DNA of 63,832 nucleotides, filler included, from 6 parts of 6 records of this genome joined end to end with filler, not necessarily neighbours in it, one strand, 5' to 3'; positions 13,648 to 36,816 are shown, numbered from the whole stretch's first letter. Translations and numbers: made by a program. Notes: generated by a model not told the origin, from the sequence alone.

Positions 13648-13693
13648 AAGTTTCCAGTTTCTTGCGCGAGTGTGGAGGAAACGCAAAAACTGG
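13648..13693 (+). ncRNA. Pseudoknot repeat, copy A (5'-truncated by the contig start)
   Basis: aag-ttt-ccagttt-cttg-c-gc-ga-gtgtggag-gaaacg-caa-aaactgg. Confidence 0.75.
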
Positions 13694-13721
13694 TTCTTAT
13701 TGAAATAAAACGTTAACATAT

Positions 13722-13783
13722 CTGTTCACAACGAAACCAAGTTTAGCCGGTCTTGAGTGAGTGAACAGCCCAGCCAAACCGGC
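13722..13783 (+). ncRNA. Pseudoknot repeat, copy B
   Basis: ctgttcac-aacgaa-ac-caag-ttta-gccggt-cttg-a-gt-ga-gtgaacag-cccagc-caa-accggc. P1 is a perfect 8 bp; pseudoknot gccggt/accggc. Confidence 0.8.
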
Positions 13784-13800
13784 ACTCTTACAAGAAAGAA

Positions 13801-15165
13801 ATGAAAATGAAAAAAGTTTTTGCAGGTTACTACACGCGGAATGCCAAGTTCTTTGGGATCAAGAAAAACCCTGAGTTTGAAAAGTCTTTAAAAGACACGA
13901 TTGCTTTTCAAAATAAGCTTTCTGTGTTCATTAAAAAAGAGTTGAACGATGGAGCAATTGTATATGTAAATAAGAGCAGTAAGGGTAAAGACAAACCAAA
14001 TACTGGTATCGTTGGATTCTCAGACGGAACAAGTATGACAGACAGTGGGTTCACAAAATATTACTGCGACCTCGTGAACGTAGACACTAATGGTAATAGC
14101 AACGCAATCAGAGCGGTGGTTCAATATGTATGCAACCGATATGCAGGATACAAAAGAAGGAACGGAGAAAAGATTCCGACAATACATTTCAAGGGTAAGG
14201 ATTATCATTTTAAAGACAATCAAATAAGACTTGACATTGAAAACAAAACCCTAGCTGTCAAAACCATGTACGGTAAATTTGACCTTGAGTACAAGGGATC
14301 TATCAAAGAACAGGAATTAAAAGATTATCTGGACGAGGCTGGAAAGTCAGATTTTGGGGGTAACTATATTGTAAAACAGAATTGTATCGTTGCCGGGATA
14401 AAGGTTCCATTCAAGCCGTCCTATGAGCCGGTTGGAGCATTAGGTACAGATTTCAATAAATCGGAAAAAGATAGAATTGTATTGTCGAATGGAGTTAAGT
14501 ATCCAGCAACAAAGAAACAGATCGACCTTGAGAAAGAGATCAAGAGATTAAAAGCAGTACTTGGAGAGAAGGATAAACCAGTCTCAGAACGTACAATCAG
14601 ATCAAAACAACGTAGAACCATACGTAAAAAGGACAAGAAGCTGCATAGTAAACAAAGGGTAGGATATCGTGAAACAGTTCTAGAAATTATAGAATATGTT
14701 AAGGAACACAGATTGTTGATGTGTATCGACAGTGTGGTAACTGGTCAAAGGAACGGAACTTTTGGTCATGACAAAATTAAAGAAATACTACTAACTGAAT
14801 GTCAAAATCAAGGTGTTCCATATTATATGGTTCCGTGTAAAAACACGTCGAGAAGATGTCCCGAATGTGGTCATATTCATTCAGACAATAGGCTTAGCAC
14901 TGATAACTTTTCATGTAAAAAGTGCGGCCATGTCGCAGACGCCCAATTAGTTGGTGCATTAAATGTGAAACATTACGGAGAACTGTTGTACAAGTCATGG
15001 GTTCCGTATGACAATTGGACCGCTGGGTCGAAAAAAAGGGCTGTTCCTACTTTATGTGAAGAATACGCAAAAGATGTCGATAGAAAATTCTCCTCACAAC
15101 AAAGCCAAGTTTTAGTAGTTTCTTGTGCGAGTGTGGAGAGTACACAAAAACTGCTTTTCACTTGA
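13801..15165 (+). CDS. TnpB/Cas12f-like RuvC + zinc-ribbon protein with altered catalytic triad
   Basis: 454 aa. RuvC-I GALGTDFN (D217), Arg/Lys-rich helix, RuvC-II MCIDSV (D310 where Glu is usual), TSRRCPECG...FSCKKCG, RuvC-III DAQLVGALNV (Q382 where Asp is usual). No tnpA nearby. Confidence 0.85.
   Translation: MKMKKVFAGYYTRNAKFFGIKKNPEFEKSLKDTIAFQNKLSVFIKKELNDGAIVYVNKSSKGKDKPNTGIVGFSDGTSMTDSGFTKYYCDLVNVDTNGNSNAIRAVVQYVCNRYAGYKRRNGEKIPTIHFKGKDYHFKDNQIRLDIENKTLAVKTMYGKFDLEYKGSIKEQELKDYLDEAGKSDFGGNYIVKQNCIVAGIKVPFKPSYEPVGALGTDFNKSEKDRIVLSNGVKYPATKKQIDLEKEIKRLKAVLGEKDKPVSERTIRSKQRRTIRKKDKKLHSKQRVGYRETVLEIIEYVKEHRLLMCIDSVVTGQRNGTFGHDKIKEILLTECQNQGVPYYMVPCKNTSRRCPECGHIHSDNRLSTDNFSCKKCGHVADAQLVGALNVKHYGELLYKSWVPYDNWTAGSKKRAVPTLCEEYAKDVDRKFSSQQSQVLVVSCASVESTQKLLFT
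15090..15155 (+). ncRNA. Pseudoknot repeat, copy C (inside the 3' end of the TnpB-like ORF)
   Basis: ctcctcac-aacaaa-gc-caag-tttt-agtagttt-cttg-t-gc-ga-gtgtggag-agtaca-caa-aaactgct. Confidence 0.78.
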
Positions 15166-15189
15166 CAATGTAAATATGTATGATATAAT
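15162..15189 (+). promoter_or_regulatory. Consensus sigma70 promoter with extended -10
   Basis: TTGACA (15162-67), 16 nt spacer ending TGA, TATAAT (15184-89). Confidence 0.8.
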
Positions 15190-15191
15190 GA

Positions 15192-15254
15192 CTGTACCAG
15201 ACAAAACCAAGTTTCCTGTTTCTTGAGTGATGGTGCAGCAGCTACAAAAACAGG
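15192..15254 (+). ncRNA. Pseudoknot repeat, copy D
   Basis: ctgtacca-gacaaa-ac-caag-ttt-cctgttt-cttg-a-gt-ga-tggtgcag-cagcta-caa-aaacagg. Confidence 0.8.
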
Positions 15255-15256
15255 TT

Positions 15257-15320
15257 CTTCACACAACAAAGCCAGGTTTCCAGTTTCTTGCGCGAGTATG
15301 GAGGGTTATCAAAAACTGGA
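15257..15320 (+). ncRNA. Pseudoknot repeat, copy E
   Basis: cttcacac-aacaaa-gc-cagg-ttt-ccagttt-cttg-c-gc-ga-gtatggag-ggttat-caa-aaactgga. Ends 23 nt before the dnaE ATG. Confidence 0.8.
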
Positions 15321-15343
15321 TTTTTACTCATTGAAAGAAAATC

Positions 15344-16948
15344 ATGAAATACCCACTTTGTAATTACACACACTACTCGTTGCTCAAGGGCTTCTCTAAG
15401 CCTAAACAGCTATCCAAGAAATGTGTTGAGAATGGATACGTTGCCTGCGGCATCTCTGACTACAAGTCAATATCGGGGGCGGTGTCGTTCCATAAGTCCT
15501 GTCAGGACAGTGGCATTAAACCCATCATCGGGTGTTCGTTTGATCACTACACCCTGTTCGCAAGAAATAAGCAGGGCTGGTTTGACTTGATTGAGATTGT
15601 GTCCTCGTTAAGCGCAGAGGGCAATGAGTATTTTCACATTACGAAAGAAATTTGCAAGCGTAACAATCTGATCTGTGTAACTATCGATCAGTCTCCGTGT
15701 GATGCCTCTCTAACATTCAAGCACACCTCTCTAACATCGCCCTCTCATTACGTTGAACAAGCAGACGCTCACCTTCATAGAATACTACTGTGTTCAGCCA
15801 TGAAGACAACCCTGCCAAAAGTTAATACCCTTTTGAGGTCCGGTGGTCTGAAACAAAATGAGGAATTCTTTTTAAAGGACACTTTTCATGTAAAGTCAAA
15901 AGATGAAATGTCCGATGATGAGAATGGTGAGAGATCCCTAGAGCAGATATACAACCTGTGTGAAGACTATGAAATCCTCAGCCCTCCAATGCTTCCGAAG
16001 TTCCCAACCCCAACAGGAGAGTCCGAAGAAGAGTATCTCAAAAGTCTAGCTAGAAAAGGATGGATAAAATTCCTACACAATACGGGAAAGATAGAGGAGA
16101 AAGAAGACAAGCAAAGATACCTCGATAGATTCACTATGGAATTTGATGTCATTAAGCAAGCAAACCTTTTTGGTTACTTTCTAATCGTTCAAGATATCAT
16201 ACGCTATGTAAAGAGCCAAGGGTGGCTTTCGGGGCCGGGTAGAGGTTCTGCTGCTGGATGTTTAATATCCTACATTGTTGAAATCACAGAGATAGACCCT
16301 ATAGAATTCGACCTATTATTTGAAAGGTTTTTTAATGCCGCAAGAACTGATGCTCTACCGGACATTGATATGGATGTCCCAGCTAACAAGCGTGATGATA
16401 TCATTGAATATCTTAAAAATACTTACGGAAAAGATAACGTGAGTCAGATGCTTACATTTGGCAGGCTACAGGGAAGAAGCGCAGTAAAAGAGGTTTTGAG
16501 AGCTAGTGACGTGTGTGGCTTTAGTGAAATGAATGAAATCACAAGCCATATAGCAGACGAAGCGGCGATCTCCGACCAGCTACAGGAAATGGACGAGGAA
16601 GACAGGTCCATTATCAGATGGTCTCTGGTTAATAATGCTGACGATCTGCGAGACTTTTGCTTTATTGACGAAGACGGTAATCTGGATGGCGACTATGCAG
16701 AATTCTTTGACCAAGCTATACAGATCGAGGGTACATTTAAAACACAGGGCAAACACCCTGCCGGGGTTGTTATTTCGGCAGAACCCCTTTACAAAGTTTG
16801 CCCAATGGTAAATCAAAAAAGCGGAGGAGAAAAAATTGCAGGACTAGAAATGGCTGATTTGGAAGCACTCGGACATGTTAAGTTTGATGTGCTTGGACTT
16901 ACCTTACTTGATAAAATTATGAAAATAGAGGATCTGATAAATGGCTAG
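15344..16948 (+). CDS. dnaE: DNA polymerase III alpha, N-terminal half (degenerate PHP + palm)
   Basis: THYSLLKG, GPGRGSAAG, LLFERF, PDIDMD, GKHPAGVVI and VKFDVLGL. Confidence 0.92.
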   Translation: MKYPLCNYTHYSLLKGFSKPKQLSKKCVENGYVACGISDYKSISGAVSFHKSCQDSGIKPIIGCSFDHYTLFARNKQGWFDLIEIVSSLSAEGNEYFHITKEICKRNNLICVTIDQSPCDASLTFKHTSLTSPSHYVEQADAHLHRILLCSAMKTTLPKVNTLLRSGGLKQNEEFFLKDTFHVKSKDEMSDDENGERSLEQIYNLCEDYEILSPPMLPKFPTPTGESEEEYLKSLARKGWIKFLHNTGKIEEKEDKQRYLDRFTMEFDVIKQANLFGYFLIVQDIIRYVKSQGWLSGPGRGSAAGCLISYIVEITEIDPIEFDLLFERFFNAARTDALPDIDMDVPANKRDDIIEYLKNTYGKDNVSQMLTFGRLQGRSAVKEVLRASDVCGFSEMNEITSHIADEAAISDQLQEMDEEDRSIIRWSLVNNADDLRDFCFIDEDGNLDGDYAEFFDQAIQIEGTFKTQGKHPAGVVISAEPLYKVCPMVNQKSGGEKIAGLEMADLEALGHVKFDVLGLTLLDKIMKIEDLING

Positions 16949-17618
16949 CAGAGATATAATTGTATTCGACTTTGAAACAGGTGGTAGAGACCCCAACGTG
17001 TGCCAACCGACACAGTTGGCGGCTATAGCCCTAGATGGTAGAAACTTTAGAATGAAAGGGTCTTTCAACAGCGAGATCCGCGCAGAAGTAGACGACGAAA
17101 AGGCCGTCAAGAAGGGTCTTGGACCCATTGAGGAAGGGGCGCTTAAAGTAACCGGAAAGACGCGGGCAGAAATTGCCAAAGCTCCGCACCTTAAAACCGT
17201 GTGGAAAAAGTTTACTCAGTTTGTAGACAAGTACAACTGGAAGGGTACGCCGTTCTTTGCTCCTATTCCAGCAGGATTTAATATCATTGGGTACGACATG
17301 GTCATCATTAATAGACTATGTAAAGAGTTTGGACCATACGATGATAAAAGAGAGCGTCAAAAACTATTTAGTGCAGTATACAAGATTGATGTTATGGATA
17401 ATGTTTTTATGTGGACAGAGGGCGACCCTAGCGTCAAATCTATTAGTATGGACGCGATGAGAGAAAGAATGGGTATGTCTACTGAAAACTCTCACGACGC
17501 CCTACAGGACGTTAAAGACACTGCAAACATAATGATTAAGTTTATGAAGACTCACCGCGCTGTATACAGAAATCTAAAAGTTGAAAACGCCTTTGCTAAC
17601 GGAGACCTGTATGTCTAA
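16941..17618 (+). CDS. DEDDh 3'-5' exonuclease (DnaQ/epsilon-like)
   Basis: FDFETGG, GFNIIGYD and HDALQDV. Confidence 0.88.
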   Translation: MASRDIIVFDFETGGRDPNVCQPTQLAAIALDGRNFRMKGSFNSEIRAEVDDEKAVKKGLGPIEEGALKVTGKTRAEIAKAPHLKTVWKKFTQFVDKYNWKGTPFFAPIPAGFNIIGYDMVIINRLCKEFGPYDDKRERQKLFSAVYKIDVMDNVFMWTEGDPSVKSISMDAMRERMGMSTENSHDALQDVKDTANIMIKFMKTHRAVYRNLKVENAFANGDLYV

Positions 17619-19161
17619 GGTCGATACAAACGACCAGAAAACGTGGGATCTATTCAATAAGGGGTACACAAAAGGTGTATTCCAACTTGAAAGTAATCAT
17701 GGAAGAAATTGGTCTAGAAAATTAGCCCCATCAAACCTTGAAGAGTTGTCGGCCTTGATAGCAATTATCAGGCCGGGAACCCAAAAGGAGCAGCGTCAGC
17801 AATTCGTTGATAGAAAACATGGGCGTGAAGAGGTTACTTACCTAGACAAGTCTCTAGAAGAGATCCTCAAAAAGACGTATGGTATTTTAGTTTATCAAGA
17901 GCAATCTATGCGTATAGCCCAGAAGCTAGCAGGGTTCGACCTTAAAGAAGCTGACGAGCTACGTAAAGCCATTGGTAAGAAAAAGGCCGACCTTATGGCT
18001 AAGATTAAGACTAAGTTTATCAAGGGCTGTATAAAGCAAAAGGTCGTAACGAAGGAAGCCTCAGAGGAGATATTTGGATGGATTGAAAAGTCGGCTCGCT
18101 ATGCGTTTAATAAGTCTCACAGTGTGGCATATGCTGTGAACGCTTATAATACAGCTTGGTACAAAGCGAACCATACAACGGAGTTTTTCCTGTCTTACCT
18201 ATACTATGCCGCTGACAAGCAAGATCCTCATCGGGAAGTCTACGAATTGGTTTCGGAAGCTAAACTATTTTCTATCGAAACAAAAATACCAAACCTGACA
18301 CAGTTTAGTCAAAAGTTTGTTACGGTTGGTAGAGATATTTACTTTGGGATTAAGGATGTCAAATCCCTGACTGGCGTTACTGGAGATAAAGTTATCTCAT
18401 CAATAGAAGGCGTTGAGGAAGAGACCAGGATAAAGTCTAAAAATCTAAAATGGCTAGACGTTTTGATCTATCTGTCTCCTAAAGTTAATGCTACGGCTTT
18501 TAAGGCTCTAGCGTCTATCGGGTTCTTTAGCACAAAGTCTACAAATGTCTCACGCAACAAAGCCTTATACGAGTATGAAATATTCAAAATGCTCACCAAG
18601 AAGGAAAAGGAGTGGGTCTTAAATAACTACTCAGATAAAAAGTGGACAACCCTAGAAGAGTGTATGATAGATCTATGCCCAACAAAGAAAAACGGTGGCG
18701 GAACACATAATGTAGCTCGCAGTCAATTGATTGAGAATGAATTAGAAATGATTCGCAATCCACCGTTCAGCCTGGACGACGACCCCTCTTGGATCGTAGC
18801 CCAAGAGGTTAAGTTTCTGGGGTGTCCAATTTCCCTCGCTAAAATTGATGCCGCCGATACGTCGGAAGCTACTACGACCTGTAAAGAAATTGTAGACGGC
18901 AAAAAAGGAAAGAACCTATGCGTAGCTGGAAACATAGTCAGAGAATCATCCTTCAAAACTAAAAACGGAAAGAGCGCGGGACAATTAATGTCATTTCTAA
19001 CAATTGAAGATGACACTTGCACCCTTGATGGCGTTGTTGTTTTTCCAGAGGCTCGGAAGCTACACGAGTATATGTTATACGAAGGAAACAACGCGCTTTT
19101 CTGCGGAGAGGTCAAAAAAGGGGACAATTCCTTTATTATTGAGAAAATTCACGAAATTTAA
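17611..19161 (+). CDS. dnaE: DNA polymerase III alpha, C-terminal half (fingers, HhH, OB fold)
   Basis: TKGVFQLES, AIIRPG, TYGILVYQEQ.M, ADELRKAIGKK, YAFNKSHSVAY and OB-fold MSFLTIEDD. Likely start ATG 17611. Confidence 0.92.
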   Translation: MSKVDTNDQKTWDLFNKGYTKGVFQLESNHGRNWSRKLAPSNLEELSALIAIIRPGTQKEQRQQFVDRKHGREEVTYLDKSLEEILKKTYGILVYQEQSMRIAQKLAGFDLKEADELRKAIGKKKADLMAKIKTKFIKGCIKQKVVTKEASEEIFGWIEKSARYAFNKSHSVAYAVNAYNTAWYKANHTTEFFLSYLYYAADKQDPHREVYELVSEAKLFSIETKIPNLTQFSQKFVTVGRDIYFGIKDVKSLTGVTGDKVISSIEGVEEETRIKSKNLKWLDVLIYLSPKVNATAFKALASIGFFSTKSTNVSRNKALYEYEIFKMLTKKEKEWVLNNYSDKKWTTLEECMIDLCPTKKNGGGTHNVARSQLIENELEMIRNPPFSLDDDPSWIVAQEVKFLGCPISLAKIDAADTSEATTTCKEIVDGKKGKNLCVAGNIVRESSFKTKNGKSAGQLMSFLTIEDDTCTLDGVVVFPEARKLHEYMLYEGNNALFCGEVKKGDNSFIIEKIHEI

Positions 19162-19190
19162 TTGGTTTTTTTGCGTTTGTAGACTATAAT
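19162..19190 (+). promoter_or_regulatory. Probable sigma70 promoter for ssb
   Basis: TTGGTT (19162-67), 17 nt spacer, TATAAT (19185-90). Confidence 0.5.
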
Positions 19191-19303
19191 AGAGTGTTGT
19201 TAAATGTTACAGCGGACCTAGATTCAAAGGATTATTTAAATCAATCTAAATTCACAATCTTATCTAGGCCGCTTTTCAAATTGCACTCTGTTGAGGACTA
19301 AGA

Positions 19304-19621
19304 ATGAATGTTTGTACTTTTACTGGATTTGTAGTTGACGCACCAGAGCTTTCGGTAGAGGATGGAGCCAGCGTAGTTGAACTAACCATCGTGTCGTATA
19401 CATACCGCCGATCTAAAGCTACAGGCGAAAAAACCAGAATACCAACCTATATTAATTTAGAGGCTTGGGCTTCAGGAGCAGAGACTATAGAAAAGTTAGT
19501 AGACAAGGGTACAAAGATAACGGTGTACTGCTCTGCTAGAAACGTATCTCAGGATGACTGCTCCATAGTCTTCAGGATTAATGAATTTGACATTTGTCAG
19601 CCTGACTGTCAGCAAGAATAG
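19304..19621 (+). CDS. ssb: Single-stranded DNA-binding protein (short, OB fold only)
   Basis: MNVCTFTGFVVDAPEL, TYINLEAW..GAETIEKLVDKGTKITV; RBS GAGG. Confidence 0.75.
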   Translation: MNVCTFTGFVVDAPELSVEDGASVVELTIVSYTYRRSKATGEKTRIPTYINLEAWASGAETIEKLVDKGTKITVYCSARNVSQDDCSIVFRINEFDICQPDCQQE

Positions 19622-19639
19622 CAGTTGTAAAGGATTAAT

Positions 19640-21322
19640 ATGAGAAAAAAGCGTATACTTTTTTGTAGCGAAGCGACCTTCCTAAATACGGGCTATGCTA
19701 CTTATACTAGAGAAATTCTCAATTACCTGCACTCTACTGGCAAGTATGAGATTGCAGAAATGGCATCTTACGGTCAACGTAACGACCCACGGGCAGCAAA
19801 CATACCGTGGAAGTATTATGGCGTTATGCCCAATGGAGACTGTGAACCAAAAGCCTCGGAAGAAGAACGCAGACAGTATGACTCAAAGGGTACTAACCAA
19901 TTTGGCGAGTGGATTTTTGAACACGTCTGTTTAGATTTTTTACCAGATATCGTCTGTGATATACGTGACTTCTGGATGTTAGATTTTGCAGAAAGGTCAC
20001 CATTCCGACCTTACTTTAAGTGGGCTATCATGCCTACTGTAGATGCGAGACCACAGGCTAGACAGTGGATCGCTACATACGCCTCTGCCGATGCCTGTTT
20101 TACATACTCAGATTGGGCGGGTGGTGTCTTGACGGACCAGTCGGGAGGAAAGATTAATTATCTAGGAAGCGCCCCGCCGTCAGCCCACCCCGCCTATCAT
20201 CCTGTTGAAGATAAGAAGGCTCATAAGCAAAAGTATGGGATAGACCCCGATTATAATATCATCGGAATGGTAGCGAGAAACCAACGTCGTAAGCTGTATC
20301 CTGATCTGTTTGAGGCTTTCAAAAAGTTCTTAGATCAAGCAAAGAGTAAAAAATACTACCTCTATTGCCATACTAGCTATCCAGACTTGGGCTGGGATAT
20401 TCCAGAACTCCTACAGCAGCACGAGCTATCGTCTCATGTGCTATTTACATACATATGCAACGAAACACAAAAGCCGTTCCCTTCGCTGTTTAAGGGGGCA
20501 GTGGCCCAATCCCCATTTACGGGCAAGTGGTGTGCCACACTATCAAACGTTAAAAACGGCGCGTCTTATGAGGATCTTTCCGAAATTGTAAATCTTTTTG
20601 ACCTCTATACTCAGTATGCCAACTGTGAGGGTTTTGGCTTGCCGTATGTAGAAGCTGCGGCTTGTGGCATACCAGTGTGCGGCACTGACTACTCCGCTAT
20701 GGAGAGTGAGATTAGAAAACTGGAAGGTTATCCTCTTAAACCAGCAGCCTTGTATAAGGAACTAGAGACGGGTTGTTTACGTGCAGTTCCCGACAACGAT
20801 GCGGCAGCTAAATTCTTTTTAAGTTTCTTCCAGGATAAAGACGACGAGGAACGTGCCAACGAGGGCAAATGGACGAGGGAAAACTTTGAGAAGCATTTCC
20901 AGTGGCATCTCAGTGGTAAAAAATGGGAAGACTATTTCGATAGCGTAGATCTGCCACCTACGGAGAGAAGTTGGGGCGCTCCACCAAGAATACACCAGCC
21001 AGAGCCGATGCCCCAGGACATGCCCGAAGGTATAGAACCCGCTCAATTAGCTAAGTGGCTGATAGCAAAAGTTCTTGGAGAGCCAGAGAAACTGAATACG
21101 TTCCTCGAAATGAGACTCACCAGAGACCTGATGTATAAAACTACAACCTCTATGACCGGAGGTATGTATTTTAATGAAGCTTCGGCAGCATTCGACAATC
21201 CAAATACTAGACAGCCCTTTAGCCTGGAAGATGCCTACAATAATTTTGCAGGGATGTGCGACAGAAGAAACCAATGGGAACAGGCTAGAGCCAATAGAAT
21301 GAAGCAACATAGTAATGCTTAA
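19640..21322 (+). CDS. GT4 (GT-B) glycosyltransferase
   Basis: TGYA.Y, RNQRRK.YPDLF and EGFGLPYVEAAACG. Confidence 0.85.
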   Translation: MRKKRILFCSEATFLNTGYATYTREILNYLHSTGKYEIAEMASYGQRNDPRAANIPWKYYGVMPNGDCEPKASEEERRQYDSKGTNQFGEWIFEHVCLDFLPDIVCDIRDFWMLDFAERSPFRPYFKWAIMPTVDARPQARQWIATYASADACFTYSDWAGGVLTDQSGGKINYLGSAPPSAHPAYHPVEDKKAHKQKYGIDPDYNIIGMVARNQRRKLYPDLFEAFKKFLDQAKSKKYYLYCHTSYPDLGWDIPELLQQHELSSHVLFTYICNETQKPFPSLFKGAVAQSPFTGKWCATLSNVKNGASYEDLSEIVNLFDLYTQYANCEGFGLPYVEAAACGIPVCGTDYSAMESEIRKLEGYPLKPAALYKELETGCLRAVPDNDAAAKFFLSFFQDKDDEERANEGKWTRENFEKHFQWHLSGKKWEDYFDSVDLPPTERSWGAPPRIHQPEPMPQDMPEGIEPAQLAKWLIAKVLGEPEKLNTFLEMRLTRDLMYKTTTSMTGGMYFNEASAAFDNPNTRQPFSLEDAYNNFAGMCDRRNQWEQARANRMKQHSNA

Positions 21323-22603: not shown

Positions 22604-22626
22604 AAACACACTTAGAAGGGTTGATT

Positions 22627-28880: not shown

Positions 28881-29437
28881 ATATATTTCAAATAGGAACG
28901 TGCAAGGGTAATGACGACGTTACAGAACTTGTCAGACAATGCGACCCAGAATTAATCGTGCTAGTGGAACCAAACTCGTTCCACAACGAAGATATTTTAA
29001 AATGCTACGAAGGTGTTGGAGGTGTACACTTAGAGAATATTGTAATCACCAACAATGAGTTCCAAGATAAAGCGTATTTTTACTACCATGAAAAAGATGG
29101 GCCTTTGTACGAAGTCGCGTCTCTTGACTTGTACCACATACTAAAACATGGATATAGCCGAGGAGGCATCAAAGCAAATGAAATACCAGCCATGACAGCA
29201 CGTCAGCTTTTTGATAAGTATAATTGTTCAGATATTGACATTCTTTTTGTGGACGCCGAAGGTTTCGATGATGCCATCGTTAGATCGATTGATTTAAGTA
29301 AGTATAATATTAATAAAATATATTATGAAAACCTACACTTAAAAACAGATCTAAATCAGTATTTGAGTATAAATGGTTATGAAGTTACTATCGGAGTGGG
29401 TTATAACCAATGGTCAAACATGGCGGTTAAAAAATGA
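28877..29437 (+). CDS. FkbM-family methyltransferase
   Basis: FQIG...G.D, LVEPN and IDILFVDAEGFD. Confidence 0.8.
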   Translation: MNIFQIGTCKGNDDVTELVRQCDPELIVLVEPNSFHNEDILKCYEGVGGVHLENIVITNNEFQDKAYFYYHEKDGPLYEVASLDLYHILKHGYSRGGIKANEIPAMTARQLFDKYNCSDIDILFVDAEGFDDAIVRSIDLSKYNINKIYYENLHLKTDLNQYLSINGYEVTIGVGYNQWSNMAVKK

Positions 29438-30270
29438 AAGTTATAATTATACAAGAAAACGGCCATCATGATCTAAACAGGGGCTTTAGAGAGTGCTTTT
29501 GCCTCAAGCGTGGTTTTGAGCATCACGGTGCTACAGTAGAAATTTGGGGTAAGGGTCACGATGGTTTCGATCCAAATCCAGACCAGCGAATGTATGACCA
29601 ATATTTCAGCCACTTCGATCTAGTGATTGCTATTGAAAACTGGGACTGGATGCCAGATATGAGTAGGATACACACCAAGAAATTTATCTGGGCAATTGAC
29701 GCACACTGCAAGGGGCCGCGAGTCTACGAACAGTACGGATTTGATAAGGTTCTACATGCTACCAAACAGTTCGCAGACGAGGGATGTTGGCTTCCAAACT
29801 GCTACGATGACACAAAAATTAAACCCCTAGAAGGTGGCAATTACAAACAGTACGACGTTGGGTTTTGTGGAAATACTGTAAACAGGGAGTCGTGGATAAA
29901 ATATTTGCAACACCACTTTAACATGCGTCATGACGAAATGGTTCTTGGAAATGATATGGTGAGAGCTATTAATTCCTACAAATTACATTGGAATGCAAAT
30001 ATCAGCGTGGATGTAAACTACCGAAATTTTGAGACTATGGGCTGTCAAACTTGTTTGCTTACGTCTTGGCATTCAGACTATCAAGAGCTTGGATTTGTGA
30101 ACGAAGAAAACTGCCTAATGTATAAAAGCGATACAGAGTGTGGAGATTATATCAAGCTTGCCCTCAGCGTGGACGACCTGAGAGATCGAGTGGCTAAATC
30201 TGGGTACGAGTTGGTCAAAAACAACCATACCTATAAACATAGAGCGAAACAGATACTGGAGATATTATGA
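29434..30270 (+). CDS. CgeB-like (Glyco_trans_1_2) glycosyltransferase
   Basis: YDVGFCG, NYRNFETMGC and HTYKHRAKQIL. Confidence 0.78.
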   Translation: MKVIIIQENGHHDLNRGFRECFCLKRGFEHHGATVEIWGKGHDGFDPNPDQRMYDQYFSHFDLVIAIENWDWMPDMSRIHTKKFIWAIDAHCKGPRVYEQYGFDKVLHATKQFADEGCWLPNCYDDTKIKPLEGGNYKQYDVGFCGNTVNRESWIKYLQHHFNMRHDEMVLGNDMVRAINSYKLHWNANISVDVNYRNFETMGCQTCLLTSWHSDYQELGFVNEENCLMYKSDTECGDYIKLALSVDDLRDRVAKSGYELVKNNHTYKHRAKQILEIL

Positions 30271-30953
30271 TAGATGTTATTGTACCTGCTTATATACCAA
30301 CGGAAAGAAACTTAAATTTTTTCTATGAAGCAATGAATTCACTAAGAAGGCAAACTCTCAAAGATTTTAACGTAAAGATCATACTCAACGGTTCAGATCT
30401 CTACAAATCAGAAATAGAAGAATCAATTCAAAGTGACGACAGGTTTGAAGCACTTCATTTTAAAAAAAAGAGTTCTGCTGCAATCGCTAGAAACTACGGC
30501 ATTAGAAATACAAGCTCTAAATATGTAGCCCAACTGGACGCAGATGATCTCTACCATGAAGAAAAGCTAGAAAAGCAGCTAAAGTTTATGGAGTCGAATA
30601 CACATTGTAGCTTACTTGGAACATCAAACTATGTAATAAGAAACGGTAGAAATGTTGACTCATGTTACGGAACCCACCACGAGTATCAAACACACGAACA
30701 GATCAAAGAAAATATAGACATAAACCATAACGTTATTGTTTGCGGTAGTGTAATGTTCAGACGTTCCGAGGTGTTCGATGACAATTTATTTTATGATGAA
30801 GAAAATACACCCGGTCAGTATTGGCCTTCGTATGGAAAAATAATGTATGAAGATTTAGATATGTGGACCCGGTGCATAAACAGGGGTAAAAAAATTAACA
30901 TTATTCCAGAGCGATTGTATTACTGGAGAGAAGGATCAAGAGTAGAAAGATAA
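30267..30953 (+). CDS. GT2 glycosyltransferase
   Basis: VIVPAY, ARNYGI, LDADD, KLEKQ and EDLDMW. Confidence 0.88.
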   Translation: MIDVIVPAYIPTERNLNFFYEAMNSLRRQTLKDFNVKIILNGSDLYKSEIEESIQSDDRFEALHFKKKSSAAIARNYGIRNTSSKYVAQLDADDLYHEEKLEKQLKFMESNTHCSLLGTSNYVIRNGRNVDSCYGTHHEYQTHEQIKENIDINHNVIVCGSVMFRRSEVFDDNLFYDEENTPGQYWPSYGKIMYEDLDMWTRCINRGKKINIIPERLYYWREGSRVER

Positions 30954-31069
30954 TTGAGGAAATGATGTTAGCATAGATGAAACTTTTAGACACAAAAAAA
31001 TAGAAGCACATGTAGAAAAACCGCTGACAGGAAAAGGAAATCTTGAAATATACTGGAGGACTTAATCAG

Positions 31070-31873
31070 ATGTTAATTACAAGACTGTATGGTGGACTGG
31101 GTAATCAAATTTTTCAATGGGCTGCTGGTCAATCAATAGCAGATAGACATAACACACAATGTCTTTTTGACCTGTCTCATTTTGGTGGAGAGGTATCTAC
31201 CGAAGAAAGAATTGAAAAACATGGAAACCAAGAAGGCCCGACCCCTTGGGGGCTTGAGCTTAATAAGCTAGATCTAGAATTAAAATTTGTACAGGGAAAC
31301 ACCCTTGGGCTACCAAGCGTTTCTGATAATCATGTCTATAAGCCTCTTGGTGACAACTTATTCTTAGATGGTTATTGGCAATCAGAAAAATACTTTTTGT
31401 ACAACGAAGAAAACATAAGAAGCAAGCTCAGGATGGGAGATCAGGTCAGAGACGATATATACAGAATGTATCCATTTTTAAAAGATGAAACCGTATCACT
31501 TCACGTTAGAAGGGGTGACTATGTTAGATTACAACAGGTTCACCCCTGTCAAACACTAGAGTATTACGATGTAGCGTTAGATATCGTTGAGGGTAAAGGG
31601 TCAAATATCTTGGTTTTCTCTGACGACCTAGAGTGGTGCAAGCAGAATTTTAAATATGATAATATCTATTTCGCAGAGGGTCAATCGAATGTCATAGATA
31701 TGTATACCATGTCTCTATGTTCGAATCACATAATGTCAAACTCTACATTTGGCTGGTGGGGTTCTTGGCTAAATGAAAGTAAGGATAAGAAAATTGTAGC
31801 TCCTAAAAACTGGTTTGGTAACGGTTCGTATAATGCAGAAGATATTATACCTAGCAAATGGATTAAGCTATGA
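31070..31873 (+). CDS. GT11 alpha-1,2-fucosyl/colitosyltransferase
   Basis: GGLGNQIFQWA, GYWQSEKYF, HVRRGDY, FSDD and NSTFGWWG. RBS GGAGGA before ATG 31070. Confidence 0.9.
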   Translation: MLITRLYGGLGNQIFQWAAGQSIADRHNTQCLFDLSHFGGEVSTEERIEKHGNQEGPTPWGLELNKLDLELKFVQGNTLGLPSVSDNHVYKPLGDNLFLDGYWQSEKYFLYNEENIRSKLRMGDQVRDDIYRMYPFLKDETVSLHVRRGDYVRLQQVHPCQTLEYYDVALDIVEGKGSNILVFSDDLEWCKQNFKYDNIYFAEGQSNVIDMYTMSLCSNHIMSNSTFGWWGSWLNESKDKKIVAPKNWFGNGSYNAEDIIPSKWIKL

Positions 31874-33024
31874 TAAAACTATGTTCAGACATCATTGGAG
31901 AGCAAGATATTACTCTTCTAAGAGGGTGGTTAGCAGATATGCCAAGGCTCACAAAGGGGGACAGAACACTTGAGTTTGAAAGCAAGTTTTCTGAATTGCT
32001 GGGCTGTAACCATGCTGTATTTTGTAACTCGGGATCTTCTGCAAATCTTCTTATTGTGTCAGCCTTAAAGCAATCGGGCAAACTTAAAAATAATAAAGTG
32101 GTTGTCCCCCAGCTATCTTGGGCCACAACGGTATTTCCGGTCATGCAGTTGGGACTAGAGCCAATACTGTGTGATTGCGATATGGGAAATTTAGGAATAG
32201 ATATTGAAAACTTTAAAAGAATAATCAAGGAAGAAAATCCGGCAGCAATTATACTTGTTCATGTTCTTGGTTTTGATTCTAACATCAAGCAGATATCAGA
32301 ACTGTGTAAAGAAAACGATATAATTTTAATAGAAGACACGTGTGAGAGCCTTGGGTCTCAAACGGACAAGCAAAACTTGGGAACGTTTGGCTTAGCTAGC
32401 TCTTTTTCTTTCTACTTTGGGCATCACATCTCTACAATTGAAGGTGGCATGGTCTGTACAGACGACGATCATTTTGCAGACATCATAAAAATGATTAGGA
32501 GTCACGGGTGGGATAGAGATCTAACCAAACAAAAGAAAGAACAACTCCGAGTAAAGAATGGTAATTCTGATATAGACAACTTATACACATTCTATTACGC
32601 TGGATTTAACTTGCGGTCTACGGATTTGCAAGCATTTATAGGCATTAATCAGCTTGACAAGCTGCCAGACATAATCCAAAAAAGACAGACAAATTATTTA
32701 CTATACAGGGAATTGTTAAACGAAAAGTTTTGGCTACCAAGACTAACAGCAGATCAAAACGTAGTATCAAACATGGGATATCCAATAATCTTAGATAATC
32801 GAGACGCTTTTTACGAATCTTTAGTCTCTAATGGCGTTGAATGTAGACCTTTAATTTCTGGCAGCATGGGGCTACAACCAGCTTGGAAAAAGGCTTATGG
32901 CTCATGTAGAATGCCGAATGCAGATATAATAGATAGAAACGGCATGTACGTTCCAAATCATCAAGATTTAACAACTGACGATATCGAAAAAGTATGCAAT
33001 ATCATAAACAGGGAGTCATTATGA
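31870..33024 (+). CDS. DegT-family PLP enzyme, ColD-like 3-dehydratase
   Basis: NSGSSANL, EDTCES and SFYFGHHISTIEGG (His in place of the PLP Lys). No Fe-S Cys cluster. Confidence 0.8.
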   Translation: MIKLCSDIIGEQDITLLRGWLADMPRLTKGDRTLEFESKFSELLGCNHAVFCNSGSSANLLIVSALKQSGKLKNNKVVVPQLSWATTVFPVMQLGLEPILCDCDMGNLGIDIENFKRIIKEENPAAIILVHVLGFDSNIKQISELCKENDIILIEDTCESLGSQTDKQNLGTFGLASSFSFYFGHHISTIEGGMVCTDDDHFADIIKMIRSHGWDRDLTKQKKEQLRVKNGNSDIDNLYTFYYAGFNLRSTDLQAFIGINQLDKLPDIIQKRQTNYLLYRELLNEKFWLPRLTADQNVVSNMGYPIILDNRDAFYESLVSNGVECRPLISGSMGLQPAWKKAYGSCRMPNADIIDRNGMYVPNHQDLTTDDIEKVCNIINRESL

Positions 33025-33941
33025 AGGTTTTACTAACAGGCGCAACTGGTTTTCTAGGACAAAATTTAGAGCCGGTTTTGTCGGAAGATTATGAGGTGGT
33101 TGGGTATGGGTCCGAACCGTGGGATTTGAGAAAACAGTCTTTAGTTGAGTATATCGTTCAAAAAAATAGGCCAGATGTTATTGTTCATGCTGCTGGTTCA
33201 GTTGGTGGTATCCTTGCCAATAAAGAAAACCCTGGTAAGTTTATGTACGAAAATCTTATCATGGGAACTAATTTAATCCACCAAGCGATGAAATACAGGG
33301 TTCCAAAATTTATACTTTTAGGAACCGTTTGTTCATACCCAAAACACACGCCTGTTCCCTTTAAAGAAGAAGATATCTGGAATGGATATCCAGAAGAAAC
33401 AAATGCTCCTTACGGCATAGCTAAAAAAACCCTCATGAGACTCGTAGAGGATTATCACGAACAATACGATTTTAATGGTGTTAATCTAGTCCCCGTTAAT
33501 ATGTACGGGCCTCACGACCATTTCAATCTGGCATCCGGCCACGTAATACCAGCACTGATTTTAAAGTTCTACGAAGCAATGAAATCTGGAAAAGATGTTA
33601 CGGTGTGGGGTACAGGTGAAGCATCTCGTGAGTTTTTATACGCTCCAGACTGTGCCGAGGCAATTAAGCTAGCAGTACAAAAGGACGTGGGTCCAGAACC
33701 GATAAACATTGGGACGGGTAAAGAAATTAAGATTATCGATCTTGCTGAGACAATAGCTGACCTTATGGGTTTTAATGGAACTATTTTCTTTGATAGCTCT
33801 AAACCTGACGGACAGCCTCGTCGCTGTTTAGATACAACTAGAGCCAAAGAAAGGCTAGGGTTCGAGGCTACAACGGACTTAAAAACCGGGCTTAACAGTA
33901 CCATAGAATGGTTTTGGAAACAGGTTATAAGGGGCGTATAA
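33021..33941 (+). CDS. GDP-L-fucose/GDP-colitose synthase (Fcl/ColC)
   Basis: TGATGFLG, VGGILAN, CSYPK, PEETNAPYGIAKK, HVIPALI, WGTG..SREFLY and KPDGQPRR. Confidence 0.9.
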   Translation: MKVLLTGATGFLGQNLEPVLSEDYEVVGYGSEPWDLRKQSLVEYIVQKNRPDVIVHAAGSVGGILANKENPGKFMYENLIMGTNLIHQAMKYRVPKFILLGTVCSYPKHTPVPFKEEDIWNGYPEETNAPYGIAKKTLMRLVEDYHEQYDFNGVNLVPVNMYGPHDHFNLASGHVIPALILKFYEAMKSGKDVTVWGTGEASREFLYAPDCAEAIKLAVQKDVGPEPINIGTGKEIKIIDLAETIADLMGFNGTIFFDSSKPDGQPRRCLDTTRAKERLGFEATTDLKTGLNSTIEWFWKQVIRGV

Positions 33942-34355
33942 ATGAAATATGGATTTGTAGCAAGCTGTTTTGACGTATTACACCCAGGATACATACGCAT
34001 GTTGATAGACGCAAAAGATCAATGTGACTATTTGATAATTGGATTGCAGGACGATCCATCCGTCGAGAGGCCGGAAATAAAAAACGCGCCTATTTTTCCT
34101 TTCCAAGATAGGTTTATGATAATGTCTTCGATAGTGTATGTAGATGAAATACGACGCTACAATTCCGAAAGTGAACTTTATCAATTGCTACAGGGGCTAA
34201 TTTCTGAAAAAAAGATAGATGTCAGGATACTCGGAACGGACTACATTGGAAAGAGATTTACCGGAGACGATTTAAACATACCGTTACACTTTCACAAAAG
34301 AGACCACTCTTGGTCAAGCAGTGAAACAAGAAAAATAATAAAGGAAAACGCATGA
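33942..34355 (+). CDS. Cytidylyltransferase (TagD-like)
   Basis: FDVLHPGY, LIIGLQ.DP, RILGTDY and WSSS. Confidence 0.8.
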   Translation: MKYGFVASCFDVLHPGYIRMLIDAKDQCDYLIIGLQDDPSVERPEIKNAPIFPFQDRFMIMSSIVYVDEIRRYNSESELYQLLQGLISEKKIDVRILGTDYIGKRFTGDDLNIPLHFHKRDHSWSSSETRKIIKENA

Positions 34356-34783
34356 ACATTGGATTTTATGTAAACACCCTCAAGGGCGAACCGGAAACAG
34401 TAGACCTATACCAATCCCTGAATAGACTAACAGAAAGCGATGAGGTTTCAGATGTTAGCCTCTTTTATAACGCCGCCGACTTTAACCCAGAACAGCCTAA
34501 GTTTGGCCTGTTTAATTCTACGGACATTTGGTGCTTTACGGGAGCGTTGATTGCTACGTCTCTATCAAACGCTATTACGGCCAATAACGTGATAAACAAG
34601 TTTAAGCTATACTATCTCTACGACAAAAACGACAAGGATGTATTCCAACTGATCTCGCTTCCGAAAACCGTACCCATCTTAGCAAAAACAGAAGAGGACG
34701 CTAAGTATATATTCAGAGTATCAGGCAAACCAGTCCACTCAGTCGTTAACAATATAGAAGAAATCATAGGGGCCGTAAAATGA
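34352..34783 (+). CDS. Hypothetical protein
   Basis: 143-aa ORF coupled to both neighbours. Confidence 0.6.
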   Translation: MNIGFYVNTLKGEPETVDLYQSLNRLTESDEVSDVSLFYNAADFNPEQPKFGLFNSTDIWCFTGALIATSLSNAITANNVINKFKLYYLYDKNDKDVFQLISLPKTVPILAKTEEDAKYIFRVSGKPVHSVVNNIEEIIGAVK

Positions 34784-35553
34784 ACGATTTAGAACAAACA
34801 GTAATATCTATGTACGACGATCAGGATCTCAGTACGTACCAAATAGCAAAAGAATTAGAAACCTATCCCAACAAGATACGGCGAATTCTTATAAAACACG
34901 GGAAGGAACTAAAATCTAAGAGCGAGGCCCAGAAGGTTGCCCTCAAGACTGGCAGATCTAAACATCCCACAGAAGGTAGAGAGCGATCCCACGTGGAAAA
35001 GCTAAGTATTAGCAGATCCATGTCAAGCTATTGGGATGAAATGGATGAATCCGACAGGCAAGCAAGGGTTGAGGATTCTAAAGAGCGATGGTCGAAGATG
35101 ACACCGGATAAAAGAAAAGAAATGCAGGCTTTAGCCATTGAGGGGATTCGCCGCGCATCCACAGAAGGGTCAAAAATCGAAAACTTTGTAGTCAAAACCG
35201 TATCAGGAGGCGGCTACAGGGTACAGTTCCATAAAAAAGATCTAATTCCGAACCAAAATCTCGAAATAGATCTGTATATTCCCTCTCTAAAGACTATAAT
35301 AGAGGTAGACGGTCCCTCTCACTTCCTGCCCGTTTGGGGGGAAGACCGCTTGAAAAAACAGATGAAGGCCGACCTAGACAAGAACGGTCTAATCCTAGCT
35401 AAAGGGTTCGTCATGATTAGGATAAAAGCCCTAAAAACACGACTTTCCCTTGTAGACGAGGAGGATTTAAAAGATCTTGTATTGAAACATTTGAATCGTA
35501 TTGAAAGTAAATTTCCAAAAGAATCAGAAAGGTACATTGAGGTAGAATTATGA
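34780..35553 (+). CDS. HTH + Vsr/DUF559-like endonuclease (homing-endonuclease-like)
   Basis: N-terminal HTH (LSTYQIAKEL), NUMOD-like helices and EIDLYIP....IIEVDGPSH...D..KN. Confidence 0.7.
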   Translation: MNDLEQTVISMYDDQDLSTYQIAKELETYPNKIRRILIKHGKELKSKSEAQKVALKTGRSKHPTEGRERSHVEKLSISRSMSSYWDEMDESDRQARVEDSKERWSKMTPDKRKEMQALAIEGIRRASTEGSKIENFVVKTVSGGGYRVQFHKKDLIPNQNLEIDLYIPSLKTIIEVDGPSHFLPVWGEDRLKKQMKADLDKNGLILAKGFVMIRIKALKTRLSLVDEEDLKDLVLKHLNRIESKFPKESERYIEVEL

Positions 35554-36317
35554 ACGATTTGTTTAGTGATGTTGAGCTTGAAGAAGAGGTTTCCCTTCAA
35601 TCTCCAGTGGATGGAAACTACGGCACTACAGATGTTGTCGTAGGTGCTACACCAGAGATTACAGACCCAGAATGGAATGATTATGTAATATCCTTATTTC
35701 AGGATAATGAACTTATGGACGGTATGCCTCTGGCCGCAGGTTTACGGCGAGTGGCAGAACTTGTGCTTGGGCCAATTGTGTTCAGCGGTCCTGTACAGGT
35801 GTTCCCTCCAGCTAACGACAATGCACACGGCAGAGCCACCGTAGTGTTTAAAGTGGAGTTTAAAAGCGGCATGTGTTACTCTGAGGTGGCTGACTGCTGG
35901 GAGGGTAACACAGACGATGCCTTCTGTGCCTACGCGGTTGCTACAGCTAGTACGAGGGCAGAGGCTCGCGCTCTAAGAAAAGCCCTTAGACTGCGTGCTG
36001 TGGCCGCTGAGGAGATCACCAAAAAGAACACGGCTCAGATAGTTAGAGACATCAGTAAGTCCCAGGGTGCAGACAAAACAGGAGGTGAGTATGAAGATTC
36101 AGCAAGAATGAGTGATGCACAAGCTAACTTTATCAGTGTGAAGTGCAGGCAGTTAAATGTCAACGCAAAAACCCTCATTGGGGAGGTTTTAAAGGTCAAA
36201 GGGAAGGTAACAAAGAAGAAGGCGAGTGAAGCTATCGAGGTGCTAAACAAGTACCAAAGAGAGCCGGTTAATATTCCAAGTTCAGTTCTAGGTTATGTAG
36301 AGGAGTGGCAGTCTTGA
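35550..36317 (+). CDS. Putative single-strand annealing protein (Rad52/Sak-like)
   Basis: ATVVFKV...A.TRAEARALRKAL core and C-terminal SDAQ..FI / KKKASEAIE.L helical motif. Confidence 0.5.
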   Translation: MNDLFSDVELEEEVSLQSPVDGNYGTTDVVVGATPEITDPEWNDYVISLFQDNELMDGMPLAAGLRRVAELVLGPIVFSGPVQVFPPANDNAHGRATVVFKVEFKSGMCYSEVADCWEGNTDDAFCAYAVATASTRAEARALRKALRLRAVAAEEITKKNTAQIVRDISKSQGADKTGGEYEDSARMSDAQANFISVKCRQLNVNAKTLIGEVLKVKGKVTKKKASEAIEVLNKYQREPVNIPSSVLGYVEEWQS

Positions 36318-36649
36318 AAATCACATATACGACTAAAAATGGTAGAATTTCCGCAGAAATAGAGGGAGAGTCGCAAAGAGACCTGTTTGAGAACGTAAAT
36401 AAGTTCCAAGACGTTTTCGAAGAACTCAACTGCGGCAAGTGTGGCTCTGACGATGTTAGATTTGTCGTCAGAAACGTGGATGACAACCTTTACTACGAAT
36501 TAAGATGTAAGGGTTGTGGTGGTCGCCTTAACTTTGGAGCAAATAAGTCAGGAGGTGGTTTATTTCCCAAGCGAAAGGATGGAGAGGGTAACTGGTTACC
36601 CGATAACGGTTGGGTAAAGTGGAACCCTAAGACAGAGAAGAATGAATGA
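36314..36649 (+). CDS. Zinc-ribbon phage protein
   Basis: CGKCG...CKGCG. Likely TTG start at 36314 after AGGAG. Confidence 0.65.
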   Translation: MKITYTTKNGRISAEIEGESQRDLFENVNKFQDVFEELNCGKCGSDDVRFVVRNVDDNLYYELRCKGCGGRLNFGANKSGGGLFPKRKDGEGNWLPDNGWVKWNPKTEKNE

Positions 36650-36655
36650 ATCTAT

Positions 36656-36720
36656 CTGTACCAAACAAAACCAAGTTTTTCCTGTTTCTTGCGTGATGGT
36701 GCAGCATCTACAAAAACAGG
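36656..36720 (+). ncRNA. Pseudoknot repeat, copy F
   Basis: ctgtacca-aacaaa-ac-caag-ttttt-cctgttt-cttg-c-gt-ga-tggtgcag-catcta-caa-aaacagg. Confidence 0.8.
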
Positions 36721-36722
36721 TT

Positions 36723-36781
36723 CTTACCTCAACAAAGTTATGTTTTCGGTCATACGCGAGAGGTAAGATCCACCAAACCGA
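36723..36781 (+). ncRNA. Pseudoknot repeat, copy G (most divergent; all helices compensated)
   Basis: cttacctc-aacaaa-gt-tatg-ttt-tcggt-cata-c-gc-ga-gaggtaag-atccac-caa-accga. Confidence 0.8.
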
Positions 36782-36782
36782 T

Positions 36783-36816
36783 CTTCACACAACAAAGCCA
36801 AGTTTCCAGTTTCTTG
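36783..36816 (+). ncRNA. Pseudoknot repeat, copy H (3'-truncated by the contig end)
   Basis: cttcacac-aacaaa-gc-caag-ttt-ccagttt-cttg. Confidence 0.75.

Follow-up and report, generated by a model that had tools for sequence, protein, structure and literature searches.

Arrays of a small pseudoknotted RNA with a hypervariable hexamer accompany a TnpB/Cas12f-fold gene in uncultured marine phages

We analysed a window of 63,832 bases made up of six contigs (joints N44-TTAATTAATTAA-N44) for a repeated RNA motif, here called the unit, which was confined to the 23-kb contig at 13648-36816, where phage-type replication proteins are also encoded. Each unit is an RNA of 60–67 nucleotides (nt) on the + strand, with an 8-base-pair (bp) helix P1, a 2+4-bp helix P2 and a pseudoknot that joins the hairpin loop to the 3' tail. 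The units flank a gene with the TnpB/Cas12f fold, accompany relatives of that gene in other phages, and contain six unpaired bases, N6, that change even between units that are otherwise nearly identical. We tentatively read them as partner RNAs of the TnpB-like protein.

Fold, strand and placement of the units

All eight starts reported in the initial annotation carried the motif on the + strand, with six units complete (B, C, D, E, F and G) and two cut by the contig ends (A' and H). At the left end, the 3' part of A' (13648..13697; N6 13678-13683; 37 bits) is followed by unit B (13722..13786; bulged base 13756, N6 13769-13774; 64.2 bits), whose end precedes the start codon of the TnpB-like gene by 15 nt. 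Unit C (15090..15156; N6 15139-15144; 72.4 bits) lies within the 3' end of the TnpB-like open reading frame (ORF). Beyond it stand D (15192..15256; bulge 15226, N6 15239-15244; 79 bits) and E (15257..15321; N6 15304-15309; 76.1 bits), the latter 22 nt upstream of a dnaE-like start codon. The right-hand array consists of F (36656..36722; N6 36705-36710; 78.8 bits), a close copy of D, then G (36723..36782; N6 36768-36773; 66.9 bits), which is of a short-pseudoknot type, and the 5' part of H (36783..36816; 22.2 bits), a close copy of E. Single P1 mismatches were present in C and E, as originally described. A covariance-model scan of the whole window with filters off gave no further unit, the next match having E = 0.87. 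A' and H have 17 nt in common; they are probably separate copies, because a metagenome contig whose gene is 99% identical (L122) has a complete unit at the A' position, with two more units and a different gene upstream. A DNA contig from run X6 extends 67 nt beyond the left contig end.

The structure proposed in the initial annotation was evaluated on an alignment of the eight window rows (A1), using as controls 500 shuffles and pairing partners slid by 1–3 columns. It paired 95.6% of the cells, a value reached by 0/500 shuffles and to be compared with 34–52% for slid partners, and changes on both sides were seen at 14/21 pairs. Covariance models were built from the window's eight rows only (R1) and from 46 matches (R2), and the enlarged set drew on 43 sources for 150 units (146 distinct), in an alignment fitted to the model. 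Across the 146 distinct units the nested helices were paired in 98.2% of cells (0/500 shuffles; slid controls 29–49%), with 4–6 pair types at most nested-helix positions. As the pseudoknot is absent from the model, it provides an independent check: in 70% of the 146 units, the loop and the tail paired over 6 bp or more without interruption, compared with 16% when tails were taken from other loci. The pseudoknot strands were of 87 distinct kinds, and the 3' strand began at tail position 9 in 121/146 units. P1, the 2+4-bp stem and the pseudoknot, each of which had been said to covary, did so on A1 and on the enlarged alignment alike. In the enlarged set, 99 cells held G-U and 3 held A-C, so the RNA is read from the + strand, the strand first assigned to it.

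The C1-G closing pair was invariant (146/146 units), and the unpaired AAYAAA, GA and CAAA segments were invariant or nearly so. Single-sequence minimum-free-energy folds were unexceptional (z −2.4 to +0.6), and the structural evidence is comparative. A larger scaffold upstream of the gene-proximal unit was sought with RNAalifold on 15 loci, which returned 0 pairs on a poor alignment. In the internal loop, the 3' strand is always GA before P1', and the 5' strand is AAY-AA in most units; a canonical AAC-GA or CCC-GA 5' strand (GA after a 3-nt bulge) occurs only in copy B, as AAC-GA, and in a second unit subtype. Judged by these bases, the loop is a plausible candidate kink-turn; a gene of the L7Ae family was not found in the five phage records scanned. 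The second subtype has the same architecture with a CCCGAA..CAG 5' strand and a CGAA(G) 3' strand, which is nearer the canonical kink-turn, and occurs in L010, L004, L003, L014 and L015 (for example, L010 1889-1959, 3748-3959 and 5201-5268) beside one subfamily of the gene.

An enlarged alignment and an Rfam search had been suggested as checks at the outset; the covariation persisted in the former, and the latter returned no match. Specifically, Rfam 15 gave 0 matches at the gathering score on the whole window (families including IS605-orfB-I/II, RAGATH-18, SAM-II/V, preQ1, ToxI, the hepatitis delta virus (HDV)-like type of ribozyme, pistol and hatchet), only microRNA and long non-coding RNA noise at E <= 10 on both array regions, and only tRNA and transfer-messenger RNA (tmRNA) on six related loci. 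The view that the motif belongs to no named family thus stands. A full-text literature search found no description of the units, supplements that might list such loci lying outside that search.

The units are closely packed and often adjoin tRNA genes. Among 61 short gaps from unit to unit, 31 were 0 nt, 8 were 1 nt and 10 were 2 nt (49/61 = 0–2 nt), and units lay 1–4 nt from tRNA genes, on either side, at L002, L008, L009, L012, L016 and L021. A complete phage record of 173,842 bp (G005) has a permuted tmRNA gene (ARAGORN; RF04321 at 91 bits) whose spacer is taken up by two units. This tmRNA is of the two-piece kind and lies at 688-1085 of L118 (G005:52500-54500), with the tag AKPSFALAA. Directly before unit D is a sigma-70 promoter (15162..15189, + strand; TTGACA-16-TATAAT with a TG extension, 12/12 matches), and TTGACA-17-TATAAT promoters stand 7 nt before the first base of the first units at no fewer than six other loci. 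After the last unit there is commonly a T tract, with a start codon within 15–30 nt, and otherwise a tRNA or an intrinsic terminator; in two partial phage records (G003 and G004), one or two units precede a terminator. The base at position -1 is almost never G (2/141). Within each of the five scanned records, the units are on one strand. On the 92-kb phage contig that carries L002, two units of a second locus (L209) are on opposite strands (3350-3415, -; 9280-9342, +), so that it is probably local transcription, and not the genome as a whole, that sets unit orientation.

Contigs from one RNA (metatranscriptome) library cover A'-B, C-D-E and F-G, with the reservations that DNA carry-over is possible and that RNA ends are invisible in contigs. 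Among the RNA-library contigs, those of run X19 leave the gene body between the arrays uncovered, those of runs X16 and X18 leave the arrays uncovered, and two other RNA runs cover just pieces of the gene; such contigs cannot rank expression.

The TnpB-like gene, its relatives and its cassette

The gene between units B and C (13801..15165, + strand) is a 454-amino-acid ORF. In an alignment of the family (A2), the conserved protein stops near 15089, and the rest is a non-conserved C-terminal tail read from unit C. The protein matched PF07282, the Cas12f1-like TNB domain, at 4.3e-13 (above cutoff) and NCBIfam NF040570 at 5.4e-13 (below cutoff). Its AlphaFold2 model (predicted local distance difference test 90, predicted template modelling score 0.83) gave full-length Foldseek matches to AsCas12f (8j12_A, 4.6e-15), ISFba1 TnpB (8iaz_A, 6.5e-15) and ISDra2 TnpB (8h1j_A, 1.4e-11), with alignments spanning 417–434 columns, and the protein thus has the WED-REC-RuvC-zinc-finger fold together with the TNB domain. 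PADLOC gave solely Cas12f/Cas12u-type C-terminal matches for the gene, and PHROGs called it 'transposase'.

Two of the putative RuvC positions are constant in the family alignment, D217 and D310 being invariant in 50/50 members; by its alignment, D310 would be a D in place of the E of the RuvC triad. Of the 50, 22 carry Q, 17 carry H and 11 carry D at the residue aligned to AsCas12f D401 (in the 'ANAD' motif), which we take to be catalytic; the window protein has Q382. The D-bearing members are the most distant ones. The clade around the window gene therefore appears to have lost the canonical third RuvC carboxylate, leaving no intact D-E-D triad.

The family is small and was found in metagenomes only, comprising 17 clusters at 90% identity and 42 clusters at 50% identity with E <= 1e-30. 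It was not found among the cultured phages in INPHARED, where matches were at the zinc-finger level only, and a collection of 185,579 species genomes had it on 1 contig. When viral contigs were searched for exact peptides of the single protein, no relative appeared; an alignment-based search of viral contigs recovered relatives.

Units accompany this family closely. With R1, and so from the window copies only, units were found at E <= 1e-5 beside homologues of 36–43% identity at 9/25 viral loci, and R2 raised this to 24/25 at E <= 0.01 and 25/25 at E <= 0.1. In the metagenome set, R2 found units at 38/43 family loci (the misses being L148, L156, L157, L159 and L162), and 154/154 matches were on the gene's strand. 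Loci with distant TnpBs gave none, neither in the viral set (11 loci) nor in the metagenome set (0/37). The viral and metagenome sets have some contigs in common, and the counts are not fully independent. A unit overlapping or abutting the 3' end of the ORF, with another 15–30 nt before the start codon, is a layout as for TnpB, and the unit at the 3' end seen in unit C recurs at L001, L002, L008, L009, L012 and L016.

The gene and its nearest unit also behave as a mobile cassette. The window and L122 differ at 3/1289 positions of the gene and at 0/67 of unit C (with an identical N6), compared with 43/1605 for dnaE, and it follows that the cassette spread recently. At L127 the flanks are 82–84% identical to the window and the gene is an allele of 42% amino acid identity; at L123 the cassette sits among unrelated genes; and at L112 another gene is also bracketed by units. 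At the A' position, L122 has a chimeric unit in which a D-type 5' part meets an E-type tail at N6, and whole units are gained or lost precisely (F-G-H compared with D-E). Domain searches of the five phage records, one of them a complete genome, found no Y1 transposase, serine recombinase, reverse transcriptase, Cas1 or Nop domain (PF01798). The gene and nearest unit move between phages, in our reading by recombination within the flanking units.

The hypervariable hexamer and possible roles of the units

N6 comprises the six unpaired bases between P1' and the invariant CAAA. The initial annotation had drawn it as a plain linker, its hypervariability going unremarked. Its length is six in 145/146 units, its four bases are used almost evenly, and 142 of the 150 hexamers are distinct. 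Three pairs of units identical everywhere else differ at 6, 6 and 5 of the 6 positions. Across 39 pairs that have no more than 3 differences elsewhere, 164/234 N6 positions are changed, and the other ~58 positions hold 74 differences in all. At ~70%, change in N6 and the bulged base has reached saturation in units that share 97% of their remaining bases. By column, across 79 close pairs, the rate is 0.67–0.82 for N6, 0.62 for the P2 bulged base and <= 0.19 for all others. As a neutral yardstick we used third codon positions of the adjacent gene, which differ at 45/255 (17.6%) between L002 and L158 and at 13/401 (3.2%) between L016 and L140. The pattern also holds within single arrays: at L160, five tandem units share their helices and 12-nt spacers and have different N6, and contig variants in the window region fall on the bulge and N6 of units B and D.

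TnpB/Cas12f-fold proteins work with an adjacent RNA. We consider it most likely, at a little short of an even chance, that the units are cognate omegaRNA-type partner RNAs of the RuvC-altered TnpB-like protein, with N6 setting specificity. This is because three features are hallmarks of TnpB/Cas12 guide-RNA scaffolds (PMC10097598; PMC11061315): a tight, strand-specific tie to the gene, an overlap with the 3' end of that gene and a pseudoknot at the 3' terminus. Each unit would be a separate small RNA of ~60–67 nt that starts at the first P1 base, transcribed from a strong host-type promoter or within a tRNA-like operon. The units might be miniature descendants of an omegaRNA scaffold, retaining the terminal stem, kink-turn-like loop, hairpin and 3'-terminal pseudoknot common to TnpB/Cas12 guide RNAs. 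The constant fold would then display N6 and the bulged base as the specificity part, for a nucleic-acid target or for an evolving partner. Since the canonical third RuvC aspartate appears to be lost, protein binding or RNA processing would be a likelier activity than canonical DNA cutting. Binding to the protein, processing to unit length and any role of N6 are in this sense predictions. We are more doubtful of a further step, by which the arrays would be a CRISPR-like library that arose without Cas1/Cas2; its scaffolds would be cut out by tRNA enzymes or made from their own promoters, with N6 and the bulge serving short-seed recognition by the RuvC-altered effector in conflict with the host or rival phages.

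Several observations weigh against a partner RNA whose N6 is a guide. Units are found far from the gene as well, at 7, 13, 5, 3 and 8 per record in the five phage records, and two incomplete records (G003, 61% complete; G004, 34% complete) carry units and no detectable gene. In both, the site upstream of dnaE has one unit and is empty of the gene, where the window has units, gene and units. Four further unit-bearing viral records are also without the gene, but are fragments 4–10% complete and hence uninformative. N6 covaries with no other column (mutual information <= 0.2 bits, compared with 1.4 for true pairs) and has no local complement. Joining neighbouring hexamers into 12-mer targets gave 11 matches, compared with 10.8 in the control, and the phage's own genome shows no avoidance or enrichment of the hexamers (344 compared with 332–346; 313 compared with 315–335) and no enrichment of extended matches of the AG-N6-CAAA type. 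Six bases are very short for a guide, and the 16–20 nt 3' guide of omegaRNA or right-end RNA (reRNA) is lacking, the next unit, a tRNA or a T tract following instead. The sequences after units A' and C likewise have no second, protospacer-like match within the window. Alternatively, the RNA gene may be highly transcribed and locally hypermutable, and N6 and the bulge no more than the sole positions in it that are free of constraint. Finally, the Q-type proteins mostly keep an Asp two residues upstream of the altered position ('DAQ'), which might substitute for the lost aspartate, leaving some activity possible.

TnpB and Cas12 are the most compact known RNA-guided enzymes, and what engineering can do with them is bounded by their RNAs. 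If the units are the partner RNA, they would be the smallest scaffold or guide RNA of the TnpB/Cas12 family, in a lineage seen in uncultured marine phages only, where a TnpB-fold protein of 410–450 amino acids is paired with an arrayed RNA of 60–67 nt. They would also show how one transposon guide RNA can be turned into an array of several units without CRISPR adaptation machinery, and offer a way to study specificity in short exposed segments encoded inside the scaffold rather than 3' of it. If they are not, they still form a widespread and strongly conserved new class of phage RNA with an unexplained mutation hot spot.

As partner RNAs, the units would depart from every described TnpB/Cas12 RNA, having no room for a 3' guide, half the usual size, multiple copies, a tRNA-like maturation and internal fast-changing bases. 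Encoding on the gene's strand, overlap with the 3' end of the TnpB-fold ORF (unit C) and pairing of the extreme 3' end with an upstream loop are shared with TnpB omegaRNA/reRNA. In a study of the ISDra2 TnpB scaffold, a pseudoknot between the 3' end and an upstream loop is likewise described (PMC10097598), and for RAGATH-18, the reRNA of IS607 TnpB, a kink-turn and pseudoknots are reported (PMC11061315), to which the candidate kink-turn-like loop of the units would be comparable. However, the scaffolds of omegaRNA, reRNA and Cas12f guide RNAs measure 116–187 nt against 60–67 nt for the units, and the units are present at 3–13 copies per genome, tandem and dispersed, in tRNA operons, with an internal hypervariable hexamer. 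TldR and other RuvC-inactive TnpB/Cas12 derivatives are similar in being phage-borne, with the third RuvC Asp here changed to Q or H; they belong to another lineage than the protein of these marine uncultured phages, which have arrays of guide-less units in place of one guide RNA with a recognisable guide, and in which RuvC inactivity is presumed from the alignment.

Arrays of other kinds were also compared. Type V CRISPR arrays share tandem structured repeats beside a Cas12-family gene with a variable insert in each (the L160 repeats are near-identical), but here the insert is 6 nt and inside the fold rather than 20–40 nt, the helices usually differ, and units also occur singly and scattered. 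The units are moreover longer (60–67 nt) than CRISPR repeats of 23–50 nt, and Cas1 is absent from the five records. TIGR-Tas arrays and VIPR repeats are likewise described as phage-borne tandem short units that lack CRISPR-like repeat conservation and have short or split specificity segments. Their effectors are a Nop protein (Tas) and a RAMP protein (Vipr), respectively, whereas the protein here is TnpB-like, and unit structure and length differ. VIPR, with its RAMP protein and GGY/NN repeats, was set aside as not the present system. Repetitive extragenic palindromic (REP) elements with their RAYT gene are a domesticated IS200/IS605-family gene flanked by scattered short structured intergenic repeats. 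By comparison, the partner here is TnpB-like rather than TnpA-like, and the units have RNA-type pseudoknots with G-U on one strand only.

Much of the placement evidence could instead be explained if the units were independent phage small RNAs or transcript punctuation (5' stabilisers, processing signals or 3'-end structures) and the gene a selfish cassette that uses at most the adjacent unit. The units do lie after stops, before starts, between tRNAs, in the tmRNA spacer and before terminators, and P1 pairs the very first transcribed bases, as a 5' stabiliser does; the gene-free dnaE sites of G003 and G004, the other gene bracketed by units at L112, and the recent spread and allele replacement of the cassette also fit this. 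We nevertheless regard this, the main alternative, as unlikely, given the very tight association with one gene family and the absence of units at distant TnpB loci. Up to five near-identical tandem units would be needless for punctuation, the hypervariable N6 within an elaborate conserved fold would go unexplained, and units and gene occur together in the one complete genome that the analysis covered. Placement also speaks to a cis-acting leader, either a riboswitch or a protein-binding translational operator of the downstream gene, considering that a start codon often follows the last unit at 15–30 nt, beyond a T tract and a ribosome-binding site, and that the compact pseudoknot resembles small riboswitches. 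This is very improbable, as the fold covaries with no expression platform, many units stand before a tRNA, a terminator or a further unit and not before a gene, and no Rfam riboswitch matched. We give similarly scant credence to a DNA-level site, folded as a single strand for recombination or transposition in the manner of attC or IS200/IS605 ends; the crossover or junction would then lie at N6. The chimeric L122 unit joined at N6, the precise gain and loss of whole units (F-G-H compared with D-E) and the single orientation within a record would suit it; the ratio of G-U to A-C cells, the covarying pseudoknot and promoters placed for a +1 at the unit point to RNA, and the recombinases, Cas1 and reverse transcriptase looked for in the five phage records were not found.

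The remaining alternatives concern what the RNA itself might do. Units that are 0–4 nt from each other and from tRNAs, with near-invariant AAYAAA, GA and CAAA, a C1-G pair in 146/146 units and G at -1 in 2/141, could belong to a new class of self-cleaving ribozyme that cuts at its own 5' or 3' edge and releases tRNAs, units and mRNAs. Theta ribozymes offer a precedent, being small pseudoknotted RNAs that directly adjoin phage tRNA genes (PMC10879173). The units differ from these and other HDV-like ribozymes in being tandem and TnpB-linked, with no HDV-type match in Rfam, and their topology is not HDV-like: the tail pairs with the hairpin loop, and the strand from P1 to the hairpin is the conserved AAYAAA. 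In addition, no Rfam ribozyme matched even at E <= 10, first units start at the promoter's +1 with nothing upstream to remove, and self-cleavage leaves the tie to the TnpB-like gene and the fast N6 unexplained, so that we consider a ribozyme improbable. Phages are known to make RNAs that mimic CRISPR repeats or ToxI, and the high copy number, strong promoters, tRNA-operon placement and fast diversification limited to exposed bases would be expected of decoys or sponges for a host factor or defence protein (an RNA-guided or tRNA-directed nuclease), or of an antitoxin-like inhibitor, with N6 in an arms race. There is little to recommend this, however, since no ToxN-like or other toxin was noticed in the ORF lists beside the window arrays (no search aimed at toxin families was made), no host partner is known, and the TnpB-like link would again be unexplained. 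ToxI, CptI and TenpI stand in tandem, as near-identical repeats of 34–45 nt, immediately upstream of a ToxN-type endoribonuclease gene; the units differ in length, in diversity, their helices being unlike from unit to unit, and in their TnpB-like neighbour. A partner RNA of the TnpB-like protein is, in our assessment, the reading that the gene link and the scaffold-like fold argue for most.

Neighbouring genes and sources of the contigs

Downstream of unit E, a DnaE-like ORF (15344-16948; PF07733 at 1.8e-68) encodes 534 amino acids with PHP and NTPase domains, and an exonuclease-subunit ORF assigned by PHROGs (16941-17618) overlaps its end. Given the stop after 534 amino acids, the polymerase may be split or shortened. 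A run X19 RNA-library contig matches the start of dnaE (15344) and has a different sequence upstream, that is, a related phage with another arrangement. Near the right-hand array, a 114-amino-acid ORF with two CxxC pairs and without a Pfam or PHROG family (36305-36649) stops 7 nt before unit F. In G003 and G004, its homologues directly precede the one or two units and the terminator that comes after them. An ORF resembling HNH/homing endonucleases (34780-35553; PHROG 559 at 3.8e-15), and hence another mobile-type gene near F-G-H, lies ~1.1 kb upstream of that array.

Outside the phage-like contig, the contig at 6657-13547 looks bacterial, with a TetR-like ORF, a penicillin-binding-protein-like fragment and, from our reading of the translation, what we take to be a phosphomannomutase-like ORF. 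Considering this bacterial-looking contig next to the phage-like one at 13648-36816, the bin may mix host and phage. At three of the related loci (L112 4007-5071, L122 1-862 and L123 5711-6277, -), motifs led us to presume planctomycete-type genes (a prepilin-type N-terminal motif with DUF1559; DUF1501), which may hint at the host group. One of these planctomycete-type-looking genes is bracketed by units.

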